Source of the DNA: a virus
Taxonomy: Duplodnaviria; Heunggongvirae; Uroviricota; Caudoviricetes
Reading direction: 5' to 3' (one strand)
DNA length: 42,492 bases
IMG/VR virus record: IMGVR_UViG_2645727821_000010
Location: 1-42,492 of that record
This document shows positions 15,590-24,000 of this stretch, in pieces. The notes below the pieces were generated by a model. The model was not told where the DNA came from. It searched no databases and worked only from the letters and a program-made list of their open reading frames with translations. The translations under genes and the position numbers were made by a program. Positions within the stretch are counted from its first letter, which is position 1. Every line of letters starts with the position of its first letter.

Positions 15590-16621
15590 ATGTCCAATTT
15601 ACTGACCGTACATCAAAATTTGCCTGCATTACCGGTCGATGCAACGAGTGATGAGGTTCGCAAGAACCTGATGGACATGTTCAGGGATCGCCAGGCGTTT
15701 TCTGAGCATACCTGGAAAATGCTTCTGTCCGTTTGCCGGTCATGGGCGGCATGGTGCAAGTTGAATAACCGGAAATGGTTTCCCGCAGAACCTGAAGATG
15801 TTCGCGATTATCTTCTATATCTTCAGGCGCGCGGTCTGGCAGTGAAAACTATCCAGCAACATTTGGGCCAGCTAAATATGCTTCATCGTCGGTCCGGGCT
15901 GCCACGACCAAGTGACAGCAATGCTGTTTCACTGGTCATGCGACGGATCCGAAAAGAAAACGTTGATGCCGGTGAGCGTGCAAAACAGGCGCTGGCGTTC
16001 GAACGCACTGATTTCGACCAGGTTCGTTCACTCATGGGAAATAGCGATCGCTGCCAGGATATACGGAATCTGGCATTTCTGGGGATTGCTTATAACACCC
16101 TGTTACGTATAGCCGAAATTGCCAGGATCAGGGTTAAAGATATCTCACGTACTGACGGTGGGAGAATGTTAATCCATATTGGCAGAACGAAAACGCTGGT
16201 TAGCACCGCAGGTGTAGAGAAGGCACTTAGCCTGGGGGTAACTAAACTGGTCGAGCGATGGATTTCCGTCTCTGGTGTGGCTGATGATCCGAATAACTAC
16301 TTGTTTTGCCGGGTCAGAAAAAATGGTGTTGCCTCGCCATCATCCACCAGCCAGCTATCAACTCGCGCCCTGGAAGGGATTTTTGAAGCAACTCACCGAT
16401 TGATTTACGGGGCTAAGGATGACTCTGGTCAGAGGTACCTGGCCTGGTCTGGACACAGTGCCCGTGTCGGAGCCGCGCGAGATATGGCCCGCGCCGGAGT
16501 TTCAATACCGGAGATCATGCAAGCTGGTGGCTGGACCAACGTAAATATTGTCATGAACTATATCCGTAACCTGGATAGTGAAACAGGGGCAATGGTGCGC
16601 CTGCTGGAAGATGGCGATTAG
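15590..16621 (+). CDS. cre: Cre tyrosine site-specific recombinase, 343 aa
   Basis: Translation essentially identical to P1 Cre; catalytic R173, H289, R292, W315 and Y324 are all present; loxP lies 418 bp upstream. Confidence 0.98.
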   Translation: MSNLLTVHQNLPALPVDATSDEVRKNLMDMFRDRQAFSEHTWKMLLSVCRSWAAWCKLNNRKWFPAEPEDVRDYLLYLQARGLAVKTIQQHLGQLNMLHRRSGLPRPSDSNAVSLVMRRIRKENVDAGERAKQALAFERTDFDQVRSLMGNSDRCQDIRNLAFLGIAYNTLLRIAEIARIRVKDISRTDGGRMLIHIGRTKTLVSTAGVEKALSLGVTKLVERWISVSGVADDPNNYLFCRVRKNGVASPSSTSQLSTRALEGIFEATHRLIYGAKDDSGQRYLAWSGHSARVGAARDMARAGVSIPEIMQAGGWTNVNIVMNYIRNLDSETGAMVRLLEDGD

Positions 16622-17229: not shown

Positions 17230-17790
17230 ATGAAAACAATCGAACAAAAAATTGAACAGCACCGTAAGTGGCAGAAGGCAGCCAGAGAACGAGCGATCGC
17301 TCGGCAACGGGAGAAGTTGGCTGATCCGGCCTGGCGAGAATCTCAATATCAGAAAATGCGGAATACTATCGACCGCCGTATCGCTAAACAGAAAGAGCGC
17401 CCACCAGCCAGCAAAACGCGGAAAAGCGCGGTAAAAATAAAATCTCGTGGCTTGAAGGGACGAACACCGACGGCGGAGGAGCGGCGCATAGCCAATGCTC
17501 TTGGCGCTCTCCCCTGCATTGCCTGCTATATGCATGGAGTAATATCTGAAGAGGTGTCTCTGCACCATATCTCCGGTCGTACCGCGCCTGGTTGTCACAA
17601 AAAGCAATTGCCACTTTGTAGATGGCACCACCAGCATGCAGCACCGGCTGAAGTAAGAGAAAAATACCCCTGGCTGGTCCCTGTTCATGCCGATGGTGTG
17701 GTTGGAGGCAAGAAAGAATTCACCTTGCTGAACAAGTCAGAGATGGAGTTGCTGGCTGACGCCTATGAGATGGCAAACAGCATGCACTAA
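17230..17790 (+). CDS. ref: Ref, recombination enhancement function (HNH-family endonuclease), 186 aa
   Basis: Translation MKTIEQKIEQ... recognised as P1 Ref, with Cys/His HNH motifs; internal start of ORF 17125..17790. Confidence 0.85.
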   Translation: MKTIEQKIEQHRKWQKAARERAIARQREKLADPAWRESQYQKMRNTIDRRIAKQKERPPASKTRKSAVKIKSRGLKGRTPTAEERRIANALGALPCIACYMHGVISEEVSLHHISGRTAPGCHKKQLPLCRWHHQHAAPAEVREKYPWLVPVHADGVVGGKKEFTLLNKSEMELLADAYEMANSMH

Positions 17791-17818
17791 TAAATATATT
17801 ATTTTTAATCTGAAATAA

Positions 17819-17838
17819 TTGACAACTGACAAGTGACT
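17819..17838 (+). promoter_or_regulatory. late-promoter-like motif TTGACAACTGACAAGTGACT upstream of mat
   Basis: Shares the ACAAGTGACT core with the sites upstream of prt and lyz. Confidence 0.4.
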
Positions 17839-17979
17839 TCAGTCAGAATCATCACATGCCCGGTACGGATGGATCCCTTTTCAAATATTCCATGGACGGC
17901 ACAGTCTGAGTACCGGGCGCTACCTTCAGTTGTATTGCTAAGCCGCCGCTGGTGGCTTTTCTTTTTTATAAGGGGCGCT

Positions 17980-18621
17980 ATGGATAAGAAAATATGCGTT
18001 GTTTCGATGAGCGTCGGCAAACCGGCGTCAATGACTGCCGCATGGATCAACAATGAGCTGATAATGGCTGAGCGGACCAGCTACCCTGAACGCCGCCGCG
18101 ATATGGAACTCCAGCTGCTGCGCGAATTGCGAGAAAAAGAGGAAAAGGGTTTTATCGTGCTGGTGGAAGAGGAAAACAGCTTTATTACGGGTCGAGTTGG
18201 CCAGCGTGTAAGGTTGCGCGATCCCTTCATGAACGGCAGGCCGGTACTAATTGAAGCAATGCAGATTTACAAGGAGCTGGAACGCCAGAAAGCGATCAAG
18301 TTACCGCGCAAAGAATCCGGCAAATACATCCTCCACCAAAGCATCTTCGATTCCGAACACGACAAAAAAGGCGATGAATTTTTCAACATCAACTGGAGCG
18401 AAATAACGACAGAGCACGTTCTGTCGTTGTTATGCTGCTTCGCAACGGAATATAACAACGTTGCAAGCGCCGACTACATCAGGGCAATGGCTGGAGAAGT
18501 TGAGGCCCGCCAGGAACCATCGTTACTAAGCCCTCTGATTAACATAATTCGCGGAACCCAATGTCTAGCCGACAAGCGAGTTCCTCAAGGCTTACTTACC
18601 GGCAAAGAAAACTATTTATAA
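17980..18621 (+). CDS. mat: Mat-like particle maturation protein (alternative starts at 17833 or 17869)
   Basis: ORF track 17833..18621; ATG at 17980 has AAGGGG upstream; assigned by synteny (after ref), not by recognised sequence. Confidence 0.5.
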   Translation: MDKKICVVSMSVGKPASMTAAWINNELIMAERTSYPERRRDMELQLLRELREKEEKGFIVLVEEENSFITGRVGQRVRLRDPFMNGRPVLIEAMQIYKELERQKAIKLPRKESGKYILHQSIFDSEHDKKGDEFFNINWSEITTEHVLSLLCCFATEYNNVASADYIRAMAGEVEARQEPSLLSPLINIIRGTQCLADKRVPQGLLTGKENYL

Positions 18622-18653
18622 TTAATTACGTCAGTAGCCAATAGAGATTTTTG

Positions 18654-18682
18654 TTGTGGAACAAAAATATATATTTTACAAT
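18654..18682 (+). promoter_or_regulatory. candidate sigma70 promoter for the accessory cassette: -35 TTGTGG (18654-18659), 17-bp spacer, -10 TACAAT (18677-18682)
   Basis: Hexamers and spacing read directly; about 30 bp upstream of the cassette start. Confidence 0.3.
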
Positions 18683-18711
18683 CTAGTAACTTTGGGTGGA
18701 GGATTATTACA

Positions 18712-19752
18712 ATGATGAATATTAAGCCGCTGAAAATTAGGAACAAGGTCATGAAGCCTCATAAAGCATCATTAAACCCTGACCTAACCGCAAGGAATGT
18801 ACTTACATACAGTCATTGGGATTTTGTCGAACTCTGGTTAAAGCGAAACGAAAAAGATGAGGCTCTTTTTTATTGGGAGCAAGCAAAAGTATTTAATCAG
18901 GCGGCCAATGGTTTACCCAACCAATCAGCCCCACTTTTGCACTATTATTCATTCATGAATGCAGTAAAGGCGTTACTTTCATCTCGCAATATAAACTTCA
19001 AACAGCATCATGGTGTTGCTAGGGGTGAAAATGCAGCCCAAATTGATAACTTATCTGATATAAAAGTAAAAATAAAAAATGAGGGTATACTTCCGTCTTT
19101 TTCAAAATATATTGACGGCACCTCTCATGAGGGGGTGTACAATATAAAAAACCTTTTTTCTGGATTGCCATATATTCATCGTACATATTGCCTTACTTAT
19201 GATGTAACTGATGATATATTTATTCCACTGATCGATGCTGAGTTCGTTTTGAATGAGTCAGACAATAGCCTGTTTTTCACTGCGATTTTATCCAAGGATT
19301 TTCGGTTCGACACAGTTTTCGACATTCTACCGCCAGCGTTCGAATTGTTTGAAAGAGAAAAGTACAAAATAAAATCAGTAGAATCATTACTTGATTTTAA
19401 TGAAAATCAATCGTCCAACATGCCGCAATTAACTGAATTTCATCAAAAAATAAGAAGAAATCTTTACTATATCAATGGCGCAGAGACTCTTTGGTATCTC
19501 AAACGTAAAAACAATCAATCTGAGCATACTTCTGTTTCAATATCGCCATTGGTTATAACCCTAGCAGCTATGCATCGATTAAGTGAGCTATGTCGGTATG
19601 ACCCACTTAAGCTAAGACAGTTACTAAATGAAAAAGAAAACTGGATTATTGCTGAATTTATTCAACAATCTCCGTCACAGTTTATAGATGCAATTTCATC
19701 TGAAATTACTGGACACCAATTTCTTATCCCAAACGTAAGGTCTGCTTCTTAA
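18712..19752 (+). CDS. hypothetical protein, 346 aa, first gene of a low-GC accessory cassette; possible R-x6-H motif (R265...H272)
   Basis: ORF track; GGTGGAGGA ribosome-binding site; A/T-rich codon usage unlike the flanking P1 backbone; no family recognised with confidence. Confidence 0.7.
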   Translation: MMNIKPLKIRNKVMKPHKASLNPDLTARNVLTYSHWDFVELWLKRNEKDEALFYWEQAKVFNQAANGLPNQSAPLLHYYSFMNAVKALLSSRNINFKQHHGVARGENAAQIDNLSDIKVKIKNEGILPSFSKYIDGTSHEGVYNIKNLFSGLPYIHRTYCLTYDVTDDIFIPLIDAEFVLNESDNSLFFTAILSKDFRFDTVFDILPPAFELFEREKYKIKSVESLLDFNENQSSNMPQLTEFHQKIRRNLYYINGAETLWYLKRKNNQSEHTSVSISPLVITLAAMHRLSELCRYDPLKLRQLLNEKENWIIAEFIQQSPSQFIDAISSEITGHQFLIPNVRSAS

Positions 19753-20261
19753 TGAATATATATATCGCATGCGCTTTAACTCATGTTCCAAGGGAAATTT
19801 TCCATGAGTACAGTAATTGGATTCACAGCCTTGCAAAAGGTTTATCTCAAAATAACAACGTAAAATATGCTTTGATAAATAGTGACCCAGAATTATCAAA
19901 GCGCCCTGAAAGTAACAAATCTAGACTTTGTTACATTTGGGACAGAGATATGGTTGAGAAATCTGATGTAATAATTGCAGAATGTAGTTTTCCATCAACA
20001 GGGCTAGGAATAGAGTTGCAGATTGCTGAACAGAAGAACATTCCTGTAATCATCTGTTATAAAGATTATGGGATAAATAAAACTAAAACCATTGAATACG
20101 TGAATCCAGATGAGACTACCCATAATCTACAAGTTGGCGAGGGTTTCATTTCTCATATGGTATTAGGACTACCAAACATCCTTGATGTCATATTATGTAA
20201 AGATATTGATAACACATGCAGGAAGCTAAAAATACTGTTAGATATGATTAACCATAATTAA
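19752..20261 (+). CDS. nucleoside 2-deoxyribosyltransferase-like (NDT/DNPH1-type flavodoxin-like fold) protein, 169 aa
   Basis: TAATG translational coupling to the upstream gene; N-terminal NIYIACAL and central SDVIIAECSFPSTGLGIELQIAEQKNIPVI resemble the NDT-family pattern with a candidate catalytic Glu88. Confidence 0.7.
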   Translation: MNIYIACALTHVPREIFHEYSNWIHSLAKGLSQNNNVKYALINSDPELSKRPESNKSRLCYIWDRDMVEKSDVIIAECSFPSTGLGIELQIAEQKNIPVIICYKDYGINKTKTIEYVNPDETTHNLQVGEGFISHMVLGLPNILDVILCKDIDNTCRKLKILLDMINHN

Positions 20262-20291
20262 AAATTAACACCCACTTAAGATGTCTAAACC

Positions 20292-20311
20292 AGCCCGGTA
20301 TTAACCGGGCT
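20292..20311. terminator. hairpin AGCCCGGT-ATTA-ACCGGGCT between the convergent NDT-like gene and lxc
   Basis: 8-bp perfect stem with a 4-nt loop; weak flanking T-tracts. Confidence 0.4.
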
Positions 20312-20319
20312 AGACAAAC

Positions 20320-20568
20320 TTAATCAGCATTCAGGAGCAATGCATTATCTATGATGATTTGCTCCCATTCTTCGAATGCCCGGTCGCGGACGCCCTGGGG
20401 AACGCTGTTAGTTTTGAAATCGACGACCGTACGCCATTTCCCGTCCGGGCGGTACATGCGCAGAGCTTTACTTCCCCCTTCCCTGCGCACCTCAACGTTA
20501 TGCTTATCAGCAAACTCTTGTAATGCTCGTAGCGTCCCATGCTTTACTGTGTAGTATCGCTTTTTCAA
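20320..20568 (-). CDS. lxc: Lxc/Bof-like modulator of C1 repression, 82 aa, TTG start
   Basis: Size and position downstream of ulx and darB, as in P1; the start codon read from the sequence is TTG. Confidence 0.7.
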   Translation of the reverse strand: MKKRYYTVKHGTLRALQEFADKHNVEVRREGGSKALRMYRPDGKWRTVVDFKTNSVPQGVRDRAFEEWEQIIIDNALLLNAD

Positions 20569-21005
20569 GTTTTCTCTCCAGCCTGTGCCAAGGCTTCAAC
20601 TTCCAAATCGTAAGACTCAAACTCATAGTCCTGGTCGTCAACTTCTTCAGGCACTGGCAGTAAATGCCAGGCTGAGTATATCTGACCATTATCAAAACGC
20701 TCCTGGCTGTAGAGCGTCGCGGCTATGAGTGTTAGCGCCGGGCGGTCATAACGGTAAATTTTGCGAACGTCACGGTCAACGAGACGACCGAAATTACCAT
20801 AACCGCGCTCCAGTAATAATTTTTTAATTTCCGGCCAGTATGGACCATAGCTGCGGTACAGGCGGGGATTTTTCAGTAATCGCCCGCGTAGCCCTGACAG
20901 GAAGAAATCAACGTATTCGTCTTCTGTCTTTCCTAACAACGCTGTACGGAGTACCGCCTCAAGATATGTTTTATTCGGTTTTATTGTATCAGATAGTGTG
21001 GCCAT
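20565..21005 (-). CDS. ulx: Ulx-like protein, 146 aa
   Basis: Position between darB and lxc, as in P1; overlaps the lxc start. Confidence 0.6.
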   Translation of the reverse strand: MATLSDTIKPNKTYLEAVLRTALLGKTEDEYVDFFLSGLRGRLLKNPRLYRSYGPYWPEIKKLLLERGYGNFGRLVDRDVRKIYRYDRPALTLIAATLYSQERFDNGQIYSAWHLLPVPEEVDDQDYEFESYDLEVEALAQAGEKT

Positions 21006-21038
21006 ATTATGCGACGCCCGGCGAACCGGGCGCTCCTG

Positions 21039-24000
21039 TTATGCGTATTGTTGGATGACGGCCAGAACGTCCGCCACGTTGTGTTTTGTCTCGATAATCC
21101 ACCAGTTACCTGGGAAGTCGCTGTTCTTCGCCTTCGCTGGCAACCAGCGAGCGCCGAATTTCGCCTTGATTGCGTCTTTCGCACGGAAAAGAACCCCTTT
21201 CATGCCGGAGGCTTCCTGAAGCCCAAATACCTCGCCAGCGGCGAATTTTGGTGCGTACATCATCTTCAGGTCGGCGGTGGATACGCGATAATTCAGACCA
21301 AGAGACTGAGCTATGCTGGTGGCATCACCCTGTATTGATGATAACTCTTCTTGTTTCTCGTTTCTGGCAGCAATTTCTTCCTCCGTGATGTTGCCAAGGG
21401 CCAGGTTTATCCGATCAGCGTCTGCCTGTTTCTCTTCATCGGTGCGCCCGGCAAGTACCGTGTTAATTCTGTGCAATATCTCCACATGATTCTTGCGCAT
21501 GCTGAGCAATTCCGGCGTAACCTCGTTAAGGTCCACCAGCCCAAGGATGGCAAGGTCGGTAAACATTGATACCAGGTTGTAGGTCATGCGATAGCTGAGT
21601 TGCCCATAGGCTGATGGCAACTGCACCGCATCCATTTTATAGGCATCCATAAATTTAGAGCCGTCGTTTACGACATCCGCAATTGCCGGTGTGATTTTTC
21701 CTGTGGTGGCGGCCTCCCTGATTGCTGTTACCCACGATTGAGTCAGCGCGGCGACTGCATGATTCAGATTGACTTTCCGTTCTGCTGCAATGCGCGCGCT
21801 TGCTGCGTCCATTGCCTGCTTGATCTCGTCTTTATTGCTGTAAATGCCAATGGTGCCAAACTGTGCTGTGGTGATCTCATAATCTGACGCCCGGAACTCA
21901 TTGGTACCGAAAATGGCATTGGTGACTTCAAGTTCAGAATCCCCGTTACGAGTAGCCCCCTGGCTTGTTTTCTCCGGCATTCTGGCGATCGCATCCGCTA
22001 TTTTCTCCTGAATTGCTTCAGGGGATAGCGTATCTCCGTATGACGCGATTACATCGCCATAATTGGAGCCAAACAGTTCAACCAGGAATGCTTCTGCCGA
22101 ACGGATCTGGCGGTTATTCCCTTCCGACATCATACCAAGCACCCATTTTGCAATTGACGACTTCAGCGCGCCGTCACGGCGATCCGGGTAAACCGCATGC
22201 TTCAGTGGGTCCGTATAGGTACCAACAAAATCAATGCTATAGCCTGACTCTGTAGTCTGAACGCCGTATGAGTCAGTGATTTTGATCATGCCGCGCTGCT
22301 GGAAACGGTAGAAATCGTCACAGGAAACGATGTCGTTAATCCCGGCGATGGAGACGCCACCACTGATTTTCTGCATAACAGCATCTTCATCGGGAGTTAC
22401 ATCAACCTGTTTATCCAGCGTCTTCACATCCCAGTTACCAGATTTGGTGCCTTTGAAGGTGAAGATGATCTCCACGTCTGCGCGCTGGCTGTCGAAGTCC
22501 AGCGACTTAATGCGAACGATATCACCGGCACAATCGTAGTATTGGCCTACACGCCATGAGCGATCGCCGATAACAAGGAACTCACTCGCATGGTTAACCA
22601 GGTCAGGATCAACATCCAGAATGCCTTTATTTAATGCATCCTCCACCAGCGGGCGCAGGCGTTTGATATCCGTCGCGGCCTTCTGAGTACGGTTCAATAA
22701 TTTCTCATAGCGGGAGATGGCTTGAGAGATATTAGCCTTGCGCTGAATGGCGCTTTTCAACGACGCGCGATACTGTGCTAACAACATACGGTCTGTGTGA
22801 TGGACACTCCCCCAGCGTGCCTTCCAGTCTGCGTTATCCGCTGCCTTGGCCATTGCCGCCTGTTTGAATTTAGCTACCTCGGCGGTGGTCTTTTCAAGTT
22901 CCGCTTTGCTTCGCTCTAATTCAGCGGTAAGCACCTCCACATCCTCACCAGCTGCGTGCTGCGCCTTGATGTAGTTCTGAAGGTCGATAGTAGCCTGTTC
23001 TTTCTGGCGAGCGCGTTGCGCGGCTTTCGCCTTATCCATTTGAACCTGCATCATTGCCAGACGTTCGCCATCATCCTTAGCGGTATACATCTGCATTTCG
23101 ATCATATCGTTGGCGTCGGCGTTCTCCATTTCTGACTTATCTGAACGGAGGATATCGGAGATCCAGCCTGCTTTACGCTTCAGCGTCTTCAGTCGGTATT
23201 CATCGAAAGAACCCTTGCCGCAGTAGTAGTGAACGCGAACGCTTGCACGGTTGGAGCCAACTCGGGCACCGCGACCGTTTCGTTGCGCAATACTGGCTGG
23301 AGTCCATGGCAACGTCAGATGATGGATGTCAGTCGTTCCTCGATGCAGGTTGATACCCACCTCTGCCTTTTTGTTGCAGATGATGATCGGAGTCCGGCCC
23401 TCCTGGAAGTCGGCTGCAATCTTTTCCAGACCGCCCAACGACATTTCATTTTGCTGCGCGATATAGGCGTCATACAGAGCCATTTGCTCGTTGTATTTCG
23501 CTATCTGTGCATCTGTTGGTTCATCCGGTAACTCTTTCGGCGGTTTAACCGCTTTCAGTTTCTTACCGGTTTTACCTGCCTCGGCAACCGTCTGAGCATT
23601 CAGTATCCCCACCTTTGAAGGTTCAAGGTTAAGAGCATTGCAGATAATGCGCTTGAGCTTCTGGTGCTGCGTTTTTTCATCGGTGAAGATGATTTGCTTA
23701 CCTTCCGGGAAAAACTCCTTCAGCGTGGCAATCAGCTTCGCGTATTTGGGCGTAACGGGGTGAGTTACGGTCTGTTCGTCAATGCCAAACCTGGCCAGGC
23801 GCTTATTCACTTCCTGCTCGAACGCTTCCGGAACCTGCAACTGAATAAACTCGCCCTTATCTATCAGGGAGTATTGCGATTGCTGCGTGATTGAATCATC
23901 ACTGTCGTCGTCTTCGCTGGTGGCTTGTTTAGGCAAACTGTCTGCCAGCTGCTGCACCGCATCGGCGTACTCCGGCAGGAAACGATAGGTGATCCGGCGA

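Follow-up and report, generated by a model that had tools for sequence, protein, structure and literature searches.

A mobile gene pair of P1-like phage-plasmids, encoding a predicted HEPN-fold YaaC protein and a putative nucleotide N-glycosidase, is a candidate anti-phage defence

Homologs of the nucleotide N-glycosidases DNPH1 and MilB have metabolic roles; the substrate of MilB is hydroxymethyl-CMP and that of DNPH1 is hydroxymethyl-dUMP. The nucleoside 2-deoxyribosyltransferase (NDT)-like effector of the retron Ec86 has been reported to deplete adenine derivatives, and ThsI, the CMP-hydrolase effector of type VIII Thoeris, has been hypothesised to manipulate the nucleotide pool. PrrC and RloC are located inside type I restriction–modification loci. 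Both are HEPN RNases, a superfamily in which helix 3 ends in the Rx4-6H motif (PMC3710099). The AF0298-like and AbiV families keep the Arg but have lost the His, and use instead a conserved His from the insert between helices 2 and 3; loss of the canonical motif does not preclude toxicity in a HEPN protein (PMC3710099).

Here we analyse a stretch of 42,492 nucleotides (the window), identified as a P1-like phage-plasmid by the gene content around a gene for a 346-aa protein of the YaaC family. We favour, with moderate confidence and on the strength of sequence comparisons, the reading that this gene and the one after it form a two-gene anti-phage module carried by the prophage, in which the effector role would fall to the partner and that of sensor or regulator to YaaC. 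The cassette is probably an undescribed anti-phage defence.

Locus and gene cassette

The genes around the pair run c1, cre (15590-16621), ref, mat, the YaaC-family gene, its partner and then lxc, ulx and darB; these last three lie on the opposite strand to the pair, and the darB product has 2255 aa. The cassette and its parts are:

18562..20319, no strand assigned: acquired cassette in the mat–lxc slot (covering both genes, the final ~60 nt of mat and the terminal hairpin), from comparison with RCS47
18654..18682, plus strand: possible weak sigma-70 promoter, TTGTGG, 17-nt spacer, TACAAT, read by eye
18698..18702, plus strand: Shine-Dalgarno sequence GGAGG, read from the sequence, with the start codon 9 nt downstream
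18712..19752, plus strand: YaaC-family gene, 346 aa (ATG open reading frame; Pfam PF14175; 757 homologs; AlphaFold model)
19752..20261, plus strand: partner gene, 169 aa, putative N-glycosidase of DNPH1/MilB/NDT fold (Y4, D64 and E88 invariant; motif SFPSTGLGIELQIA)
20292..20311, no strand assigned: GC-rich hairpin AGCCCGGT-ATTA-ACCGGGCT, perfect over 8 bp, read by eye

An earlier note, made from the letters alone, had proposed an open reading frame at 18712-19752 coupled through TAATG to an NDT-like gene downstream, and both proposals stand: the frame opens with ATG behind GGAGG and encodes 346 aa, and its TAA stop (19750-19752) has one base in common with the partner ATG (19752-19754). The gene follows mat and has the same orientation. 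A consensus scan for promoters and terminators reported nothing in the intergenic region upstream of it, and no strong promoter was found there; the candidate at 18654..18682 has a consensus score of 8/12 and is missing from the scan output because this is below the threshold. The hairpin at 20292..20311, placed between the convergent partner and lxc genes, is probably a terminator. It has no T-tract and was not reported by the terminator scan, which depends on one. At the corresponding point of its empty site, RCS47 carries a hairpin that is not the same.

Comparison of window positions 18562-20319 with P1-like phage loci (L082-L085, L173 and L174) shows that the mat–lxc interval is a variable cargo slot. 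Homology to RCS47, in which the slot is empty, stops at 18561 and restarts at 20320, and the GC content of the cassette (0.34-0.37) is below that of the backbone (about 0.48-0.52). In reference P1 (NC_005856), the same interval holds the EcoPI type III restriction–modification genes res and mod. Only two open reading frames were found in the cassette; a search of positions 17500-21200 against Rfam gave no match, with no non-coding RNA or retron elements. The low GC content, the empty site of RCS47 and the res/mod genes of P1 indicate that the cassette is horizontally mobile.

The contents of the slot differ between relatives. The res/mod genes of P1 are accompanied by an IS5 insertion; a RelA/SpoT-family gene shares the slot with a hypothetical gene in vB_EcoM-673R5 and SJ46; JL22 has a single hypothetical gene of 316 aa on the minus strand; and MH422554 has about 1.2 kb with no annotation. 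The last ~60 nt of mat (18562-18621, about 20 codons) show no homology to mat of RCS47 or P1, so the cassette boundary falls within mat and Mat has a different C terminus here, at similar length.

A YaaC-family protein with a predicted HEPN fold

The earlier note could not place the 346-aa protein in a family, a statement now superseded: the protein matches the Pfam family YaaC (PF14175) with 157.7 bits (E = 5.9e-46; curated cut-off, 27 bits), its residues 34-332 aligning to profile positions 18-307 of 307, and the same family is matched by 50/50 aligned homologs. In RefSeq it already bears the name 'YaaC family protein', with 85 plasmids and 109 of 5,426 complete Escherichia coli genomes so annotated; the pair cassette occurs in about 2% of these genomes, nearly always on P1-like plasmids. 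Homologs number 757, and a search of 1.84 billion representative proteins returned 607 clusters at E <= 0.001. The match is not to a non-nuclease housekeeping family, which the note had named as grounds for abandoning its reading, and the context of YaaC is mobile and defence-related. Searches of full-text literature gave nothing functional on YaaC or PF14175. Longer homologs have no informative domain fusions, only N-terminal extensions in which no Pfam domain was found.

The AlphaFold model (pLDDT, 92.8) predicts a four-helix HEPN bundle that is split by a large alpha/beta insert; the HEPN-type fold guessed in the earlier note holds up in this model, with helices that map on the HEPN core. 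The parts of the protein are:

18856..18984, plus strand: first two helices of the HEPN core (residues 49-91), invariant at W55, Q57, Y79, N83 and K86
18985..19545, plus strand: insert domain of alpha/beta type, residues 92-278 (~185 residues), separating HEPN helix 2 from helix 3, from the AlphaFold model and alignment
19504..19527, plus strand: R265-x6-H272 stretch of the earlier note, in a loop of the insert domain, from alignments, shuffles and the AlphaFold model
19546..19710, plus strand: HEPN core helices 3-4, residues 279-333, from the AlphaFold model, alignments and the HEPN paper

Helix 1 spans residues 49-65 and helix 2 residues 73-91, the latter carrying N83 and K86. The insert opens with an invariant H100-G101 (nt 19009-19014) and also contains conserved H156-R157, R248 and W261-Y262. 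Helix 3 (residues 279-296) bears a conserved stripe, H288-S291-E292-R295-Y296, at the end of which R295 (nt 19594-19596) occupies the position of the motif Arg; helix 4 (residues 310-333) includes W311 and E315. Across 92 family representatives, N83, K86, H100, G101, R295 and Y296 are invariant (R295 and H100 are each kept in 91/92) and H288, S291 and E315 are nearly so. No conserved His follows R295 at +5 to +7 in the alignment of these representatives, and the canonical Rx4-6H is absent; the sequence positions fit the AF0298/AbiV type. This pattern points to a non-canonical AF0298/AbiV-type HEPN-fold protein with an unusually large insert, which may also be an RNase.

At the sequence level the link of YaaC to HEPN is weak. 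The window protein does not match the Pfam HEPN family PF05168, which gave weak matches in 7/50 homologs (best E = 0.016), and a profile search of the PDB returned no HEPN chain with either the full-length profile or one from which the insert had been deleted. It is by its predicted structure that the 346-aa protein falls within the HEPN superfamily fold.

Nine residues after R295, beyond the canonical x4-6 spacing, a His is present in 44/92 representatives; the window protein has Leu there (L304, nt 19621-19623).

The string K-R265-KNNQSE-H272, which the earlier note had singled out as a possible HEPN RNase motif, is present in the protein (nt 19504-19527), but as a motif we reject it because it is unconserved, belongs to a lineage-specific insertion, does not sit where HEPN helix 3 ends, and would be expected from chance alone. 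Among 120 close homologs, Ser is the commonest residue in the R265 column (46%), and H272 lies within an insertion that is absent from 98%; among the 92 divergent representatives, the R265 column is occupied by R in 36 and by K in 31, and 74 have a gap at the H272 column. The pattern R-x4-6-H occurs four times in the protein, in no case conserved, and composition shuffles yield 1.4 on average, with at least one in 78% of shuffles. In the model, the string falls in a loop after the strand 260-264 of the insert domain, with a pLDDT of 76-81 for residues 261-280. It is a chance match.

Pairing with a putative nucleotide N-glycosidase

The partner is predicted to be a nucleotide N-glycosidase of the DNPH1/MilB/NDT type. 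It has a flavodoxin-like NDT fold in which the catalytic Tyr, Asp and Glu nucleophile that mark the N-glycosidase superfamily are all in place; the Tyr-Asp-Glu triad is intact, a PSxG phosphate-binding loop is present, and the mean column identity is 55%. Against Pfam PF05014 (Nuc_deoxyrib_tr), it scores 22.1 bits (E = 1.8e-4), below the cut-off of 28.8 bits, and about half of its homologs have a precomputed match to that family. The cassette has no MNT nucleotidyltransferase next to YaaC; the adjacent gene is the one of NDT/DNPH1 fold.

To follow the pairing we used both genes as anchors. Among 80 YaaC loci in GTDB species genomes, 40 have the partner directly 3' on the same strand, mostly with an intergenic gap of -20 to +15 nt; these span eight phyla (Pseudomonadota, Bacteroidota, Planctomycetota, Campylobacterota, Myxococcota, Armatimonadota, Nitrospirota and Spirochaetota). 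Searching from the partner, YaaC was found directly upstream in 81 of 87 metagenomic and viral loci, and five of the six exceptions are contig-end cuts, which leaves 81/82 informative loci. The partner-linked YaaC proteins form one clean clade (41/41). No third gene is conserved across the 40 paired loci, beyond close relatives. The adjacency in 40 loci of eight phyla, the 81/82 partner-anchored loci and the single clade strongly support joint action of the two proteins, as the earlier note had suggested. The pair is an obligate, translationally coupled two-gene operon with YaaC first.

The sole true exception is a soil metagenome contig (L100:1304-2814) on which a member of the partner family is coupled, through an ATGA overlap, to a dCTP deaminase-like protein instead of YaaC. 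That protein has 331 aa (PF22769, E = 1.4e-27) and a hydrophobic C-terminal tail, and neither protein of this pair has a match in PADLOC. Such a neighbour, at this single locus, may point to chemistry on deoxypyrimidine nucleotides.

A comparison of linked with unlinked YaaC proteins gives T158, S222 and N341 as the residues that mark the linked clade, and NDT-linked homologs share a semi-conserved N-terminal motif, GRxLxPHKA.

Genomic neighbourhoods of the pair

Most copies of the pair are chromosomal. In a survey (raw counts) of 35 non-redundant loci of the pair, covering their 120 closest neighbouring genes, we found the restriction, methylase and specificity subunits of type I systems. Hachiman HamB, dGTPase and candidate PDC-M19 genes also occur there, together with integrases, resolvases and a transposase. 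Several YaaC–NDT pairs abut hsdR. A chromosomal copy in E. coli, with 59% identity and a partner of its own, lies between a BrxR regulator plus phage integrase on one side and a Dpd cluster on the other. Neither protein of the window has a match in PADLOC-DB 2.0 at E up to 1 or in PHROGs, and the literature searched contains no system that combines HEPN with a deoxyribosyltransferase.

Further details of placement were also recorded. The island around the diverged E. coli copy (L175-L178:4562-17053) includes a phage-type integrase and a BrxR/WYL regulator, to which one island (L176) adds JetD_C and ScoMcrA-like HNH genes; the Dpd 7-deazaguanine cluster downstream comprises PTPS/QueD, DpdD, PLDc_2 and a DEAD helicase. 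The pair is also present, in diverged form, on two viral contigs of IMG/VR (L171:628-11579 and L172:956-9707), once among the tape-measure, capsid and portal genes of a lambda-like prophage and once next to two DUF2971 genes, an acyltransferase and a nuclease of the Mrr_cat type. YaaC homologs that have no NDT-like partner adjoin, or lie between, the hsdM and hsdS genes of type I restriction–modification loci (L036, L049 and L072; also L048 and L061), a placement reminiscent of the HEPN anticodon nuclease PrrC.

Candidate role in anti-phage defence

From these contexts we infer a role in defence, an assignment of sensor and effector, and a class of substrate. The cassette would most likely protect the lysogen against other phages. 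YaaC would sense infection or restrain the partner, possibly cutting RNA as well, and the N-glycosidase, as the effector, would remove the base of (deoxy)nucleoside 5'-monophosphates or of a related nucleotide; loss of the base would then starve phage replication or abort the infection. Retron Ec86 and type VIII Thoeris offer two precedents for defence effectors from the NDT superfamily. A bolder version, which we think improbable, is that the cassette belongs to a widespread, hitherto unrecognised family of two-gene systems in which a non-canonical HEPN-fold sensor controls a DNPH1/MilB-like glycosidase that destroys deoxynucleoside monophosphates, maybe the hydroxymethylated pyrimidine nucleotides that certain phages require. 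If true, the immunity would come from hydrolysing a DNA precursor specific to the phage, as a monophosphate and not as a triphosphate.

Three other readings are less likely than an anti-phage module. The predicted HEPN fold of YaaC, its conserved polar cluster with His and Arg, and the compact, overlapping two-gene operon on a low-copy plasmid-prophage would also suit a toxin–antitoxin or addiction module of the kind that the earlier note had in view, in which YaaC would be a HEPN RNase toxin acting through H100/H288 and R295, the NDT-like protein would neutralise or regulate it, and the main effect would be to stabilise the plasmid-prophage; a missing canonical motif is compatible with toxicity in HEPN proteins (PMC3710099). 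However, the known HEPN toxins are neutralised by MNT nucleotidyltransferases and not by glycosidases (PMC3710099), a complete and strongly conserved catalytic triad would be unusual in a mere antidote, and NDT-like proteins are themselves the toxic effectors of known systems. Most copies, moreover, are chromosomal, in islands that need no stabilisation, and we consider an addiction module unlikely. We give slightly less weight to a signal relay akin to Thoeris or to type III CRISPR accessory nucleases, by which the NDT/TIR-related enzyme would, upon infection, make a nucleotide-derived second messenger that binds the YaaC insert and activates a HEPN RNase.

The patchy, horizontally transferred distribution and foreign composition of the cassette bear on whether it has to do with defence at all. 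It might be a module for nucleotide salvage or detoxification, or it might serve the phage, either as a counter-defence against host immune nucleotides or by reshaping the nucleotide pool for P1 replication. The metabolic roles of DNPH1 and MilB homologs are in keeping with this, as are the position of the cassette beside the P1 anti-restriction genes ulx and darB and the B. subtilis gene that gave the family its name, which has no known defence role. Against it stand, besides distribution and composition, the location of most copies on chromosomes, beside restriction or defence genes and integrases and not in metabolic operons, and the defence or toxin cargo that the slot carries in related phages; a role outside defence is the least probable of the readings considered here.

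YaaC (PF14175), a family of hundreds of sequence clusters, now has a predicted fold and a candidate active site, as well as a predicted enzyme as its fixed partner. Should the anti-phage module be confirmed as a defence system, it would be a new combination, that of a non-canonical HEPN protein with an N-glycosidase of the NMP/dNMP type, and would extend attack on the nucleotide pool from triphosphates and NAD+ to monophosphates. The cassette is experimentally accessible, being 1.6 kb in length and native to E. coli. The slot of P1-like phages, with EcoPI restriction–modification, RelA/SpoT-type genes and the YaaC pair, may be read as a hotspot of defence cargo that can be mined for further systems.

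Comparison with known systems

The closest HEPN relatives by predicted fold are of the AF0298-like HEPN-T (PDB 2hsb, UPF0332/COG2250) and AbiV type, to which YaaC has sequence similarity only at noise level. The insert of those proteins is a loop or short helix, whereas that of YaaC is a whole alpha/beta domain of ~185 residues, and their partner is an MNT nucleotidyltransferase, whereas that of YaaC is a predicted glycosidase. PrrC and RloC resemble the family in placement, given the stand-alone YaaC relatives at hsdM/hsdS and the YaaC–NDT pairs that abut hsdR. In both, the Rx4-6H motif is canonical and ATPase domains are present; YaaC has neither, and the window copy of YaaC, unlike PrrC and RloC, has no associated restriction–modification genes.

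The partner has about 15% identity to DNPH1/Rcl, MilB/BcmB and the nucleoside 2-deoxyribosyltransferases. Unlike DNPH1/Rcl and MilB/BcmB, it is encoded with YaaC in a mobile cassette (81/82 informative loci). Type VIII Thoeris is alike in that a validated defence system has a MilB/DNPH1-type hydrolase domain as its effector (ThsI, a CMP-hydrolase with TPR). Thoeris requires a TIR signal generator (ThsB) and a ligand-sensing effector, whereas the YaaC cassette has no TIR gene and no TPR; its hydrolase, unlike ThsI, is a bare domain of 169 aa paired with YaaC. Retron-Eco1/Ec86 shares with the proposed module an NDT-like toxic effector that is restrained by a partner until phage infection. It differs in having a reverse transcriptase and an msDNA-coding RNA, neither of which is in the YaaC cassette, and in an effector of two lobes that is larger than the 169-aa partner; in the YaaC pair, it is a HEPN-fold protein that would restrain or sense. 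The pair appears to be an undescribed system that is built from known kinds of parts.
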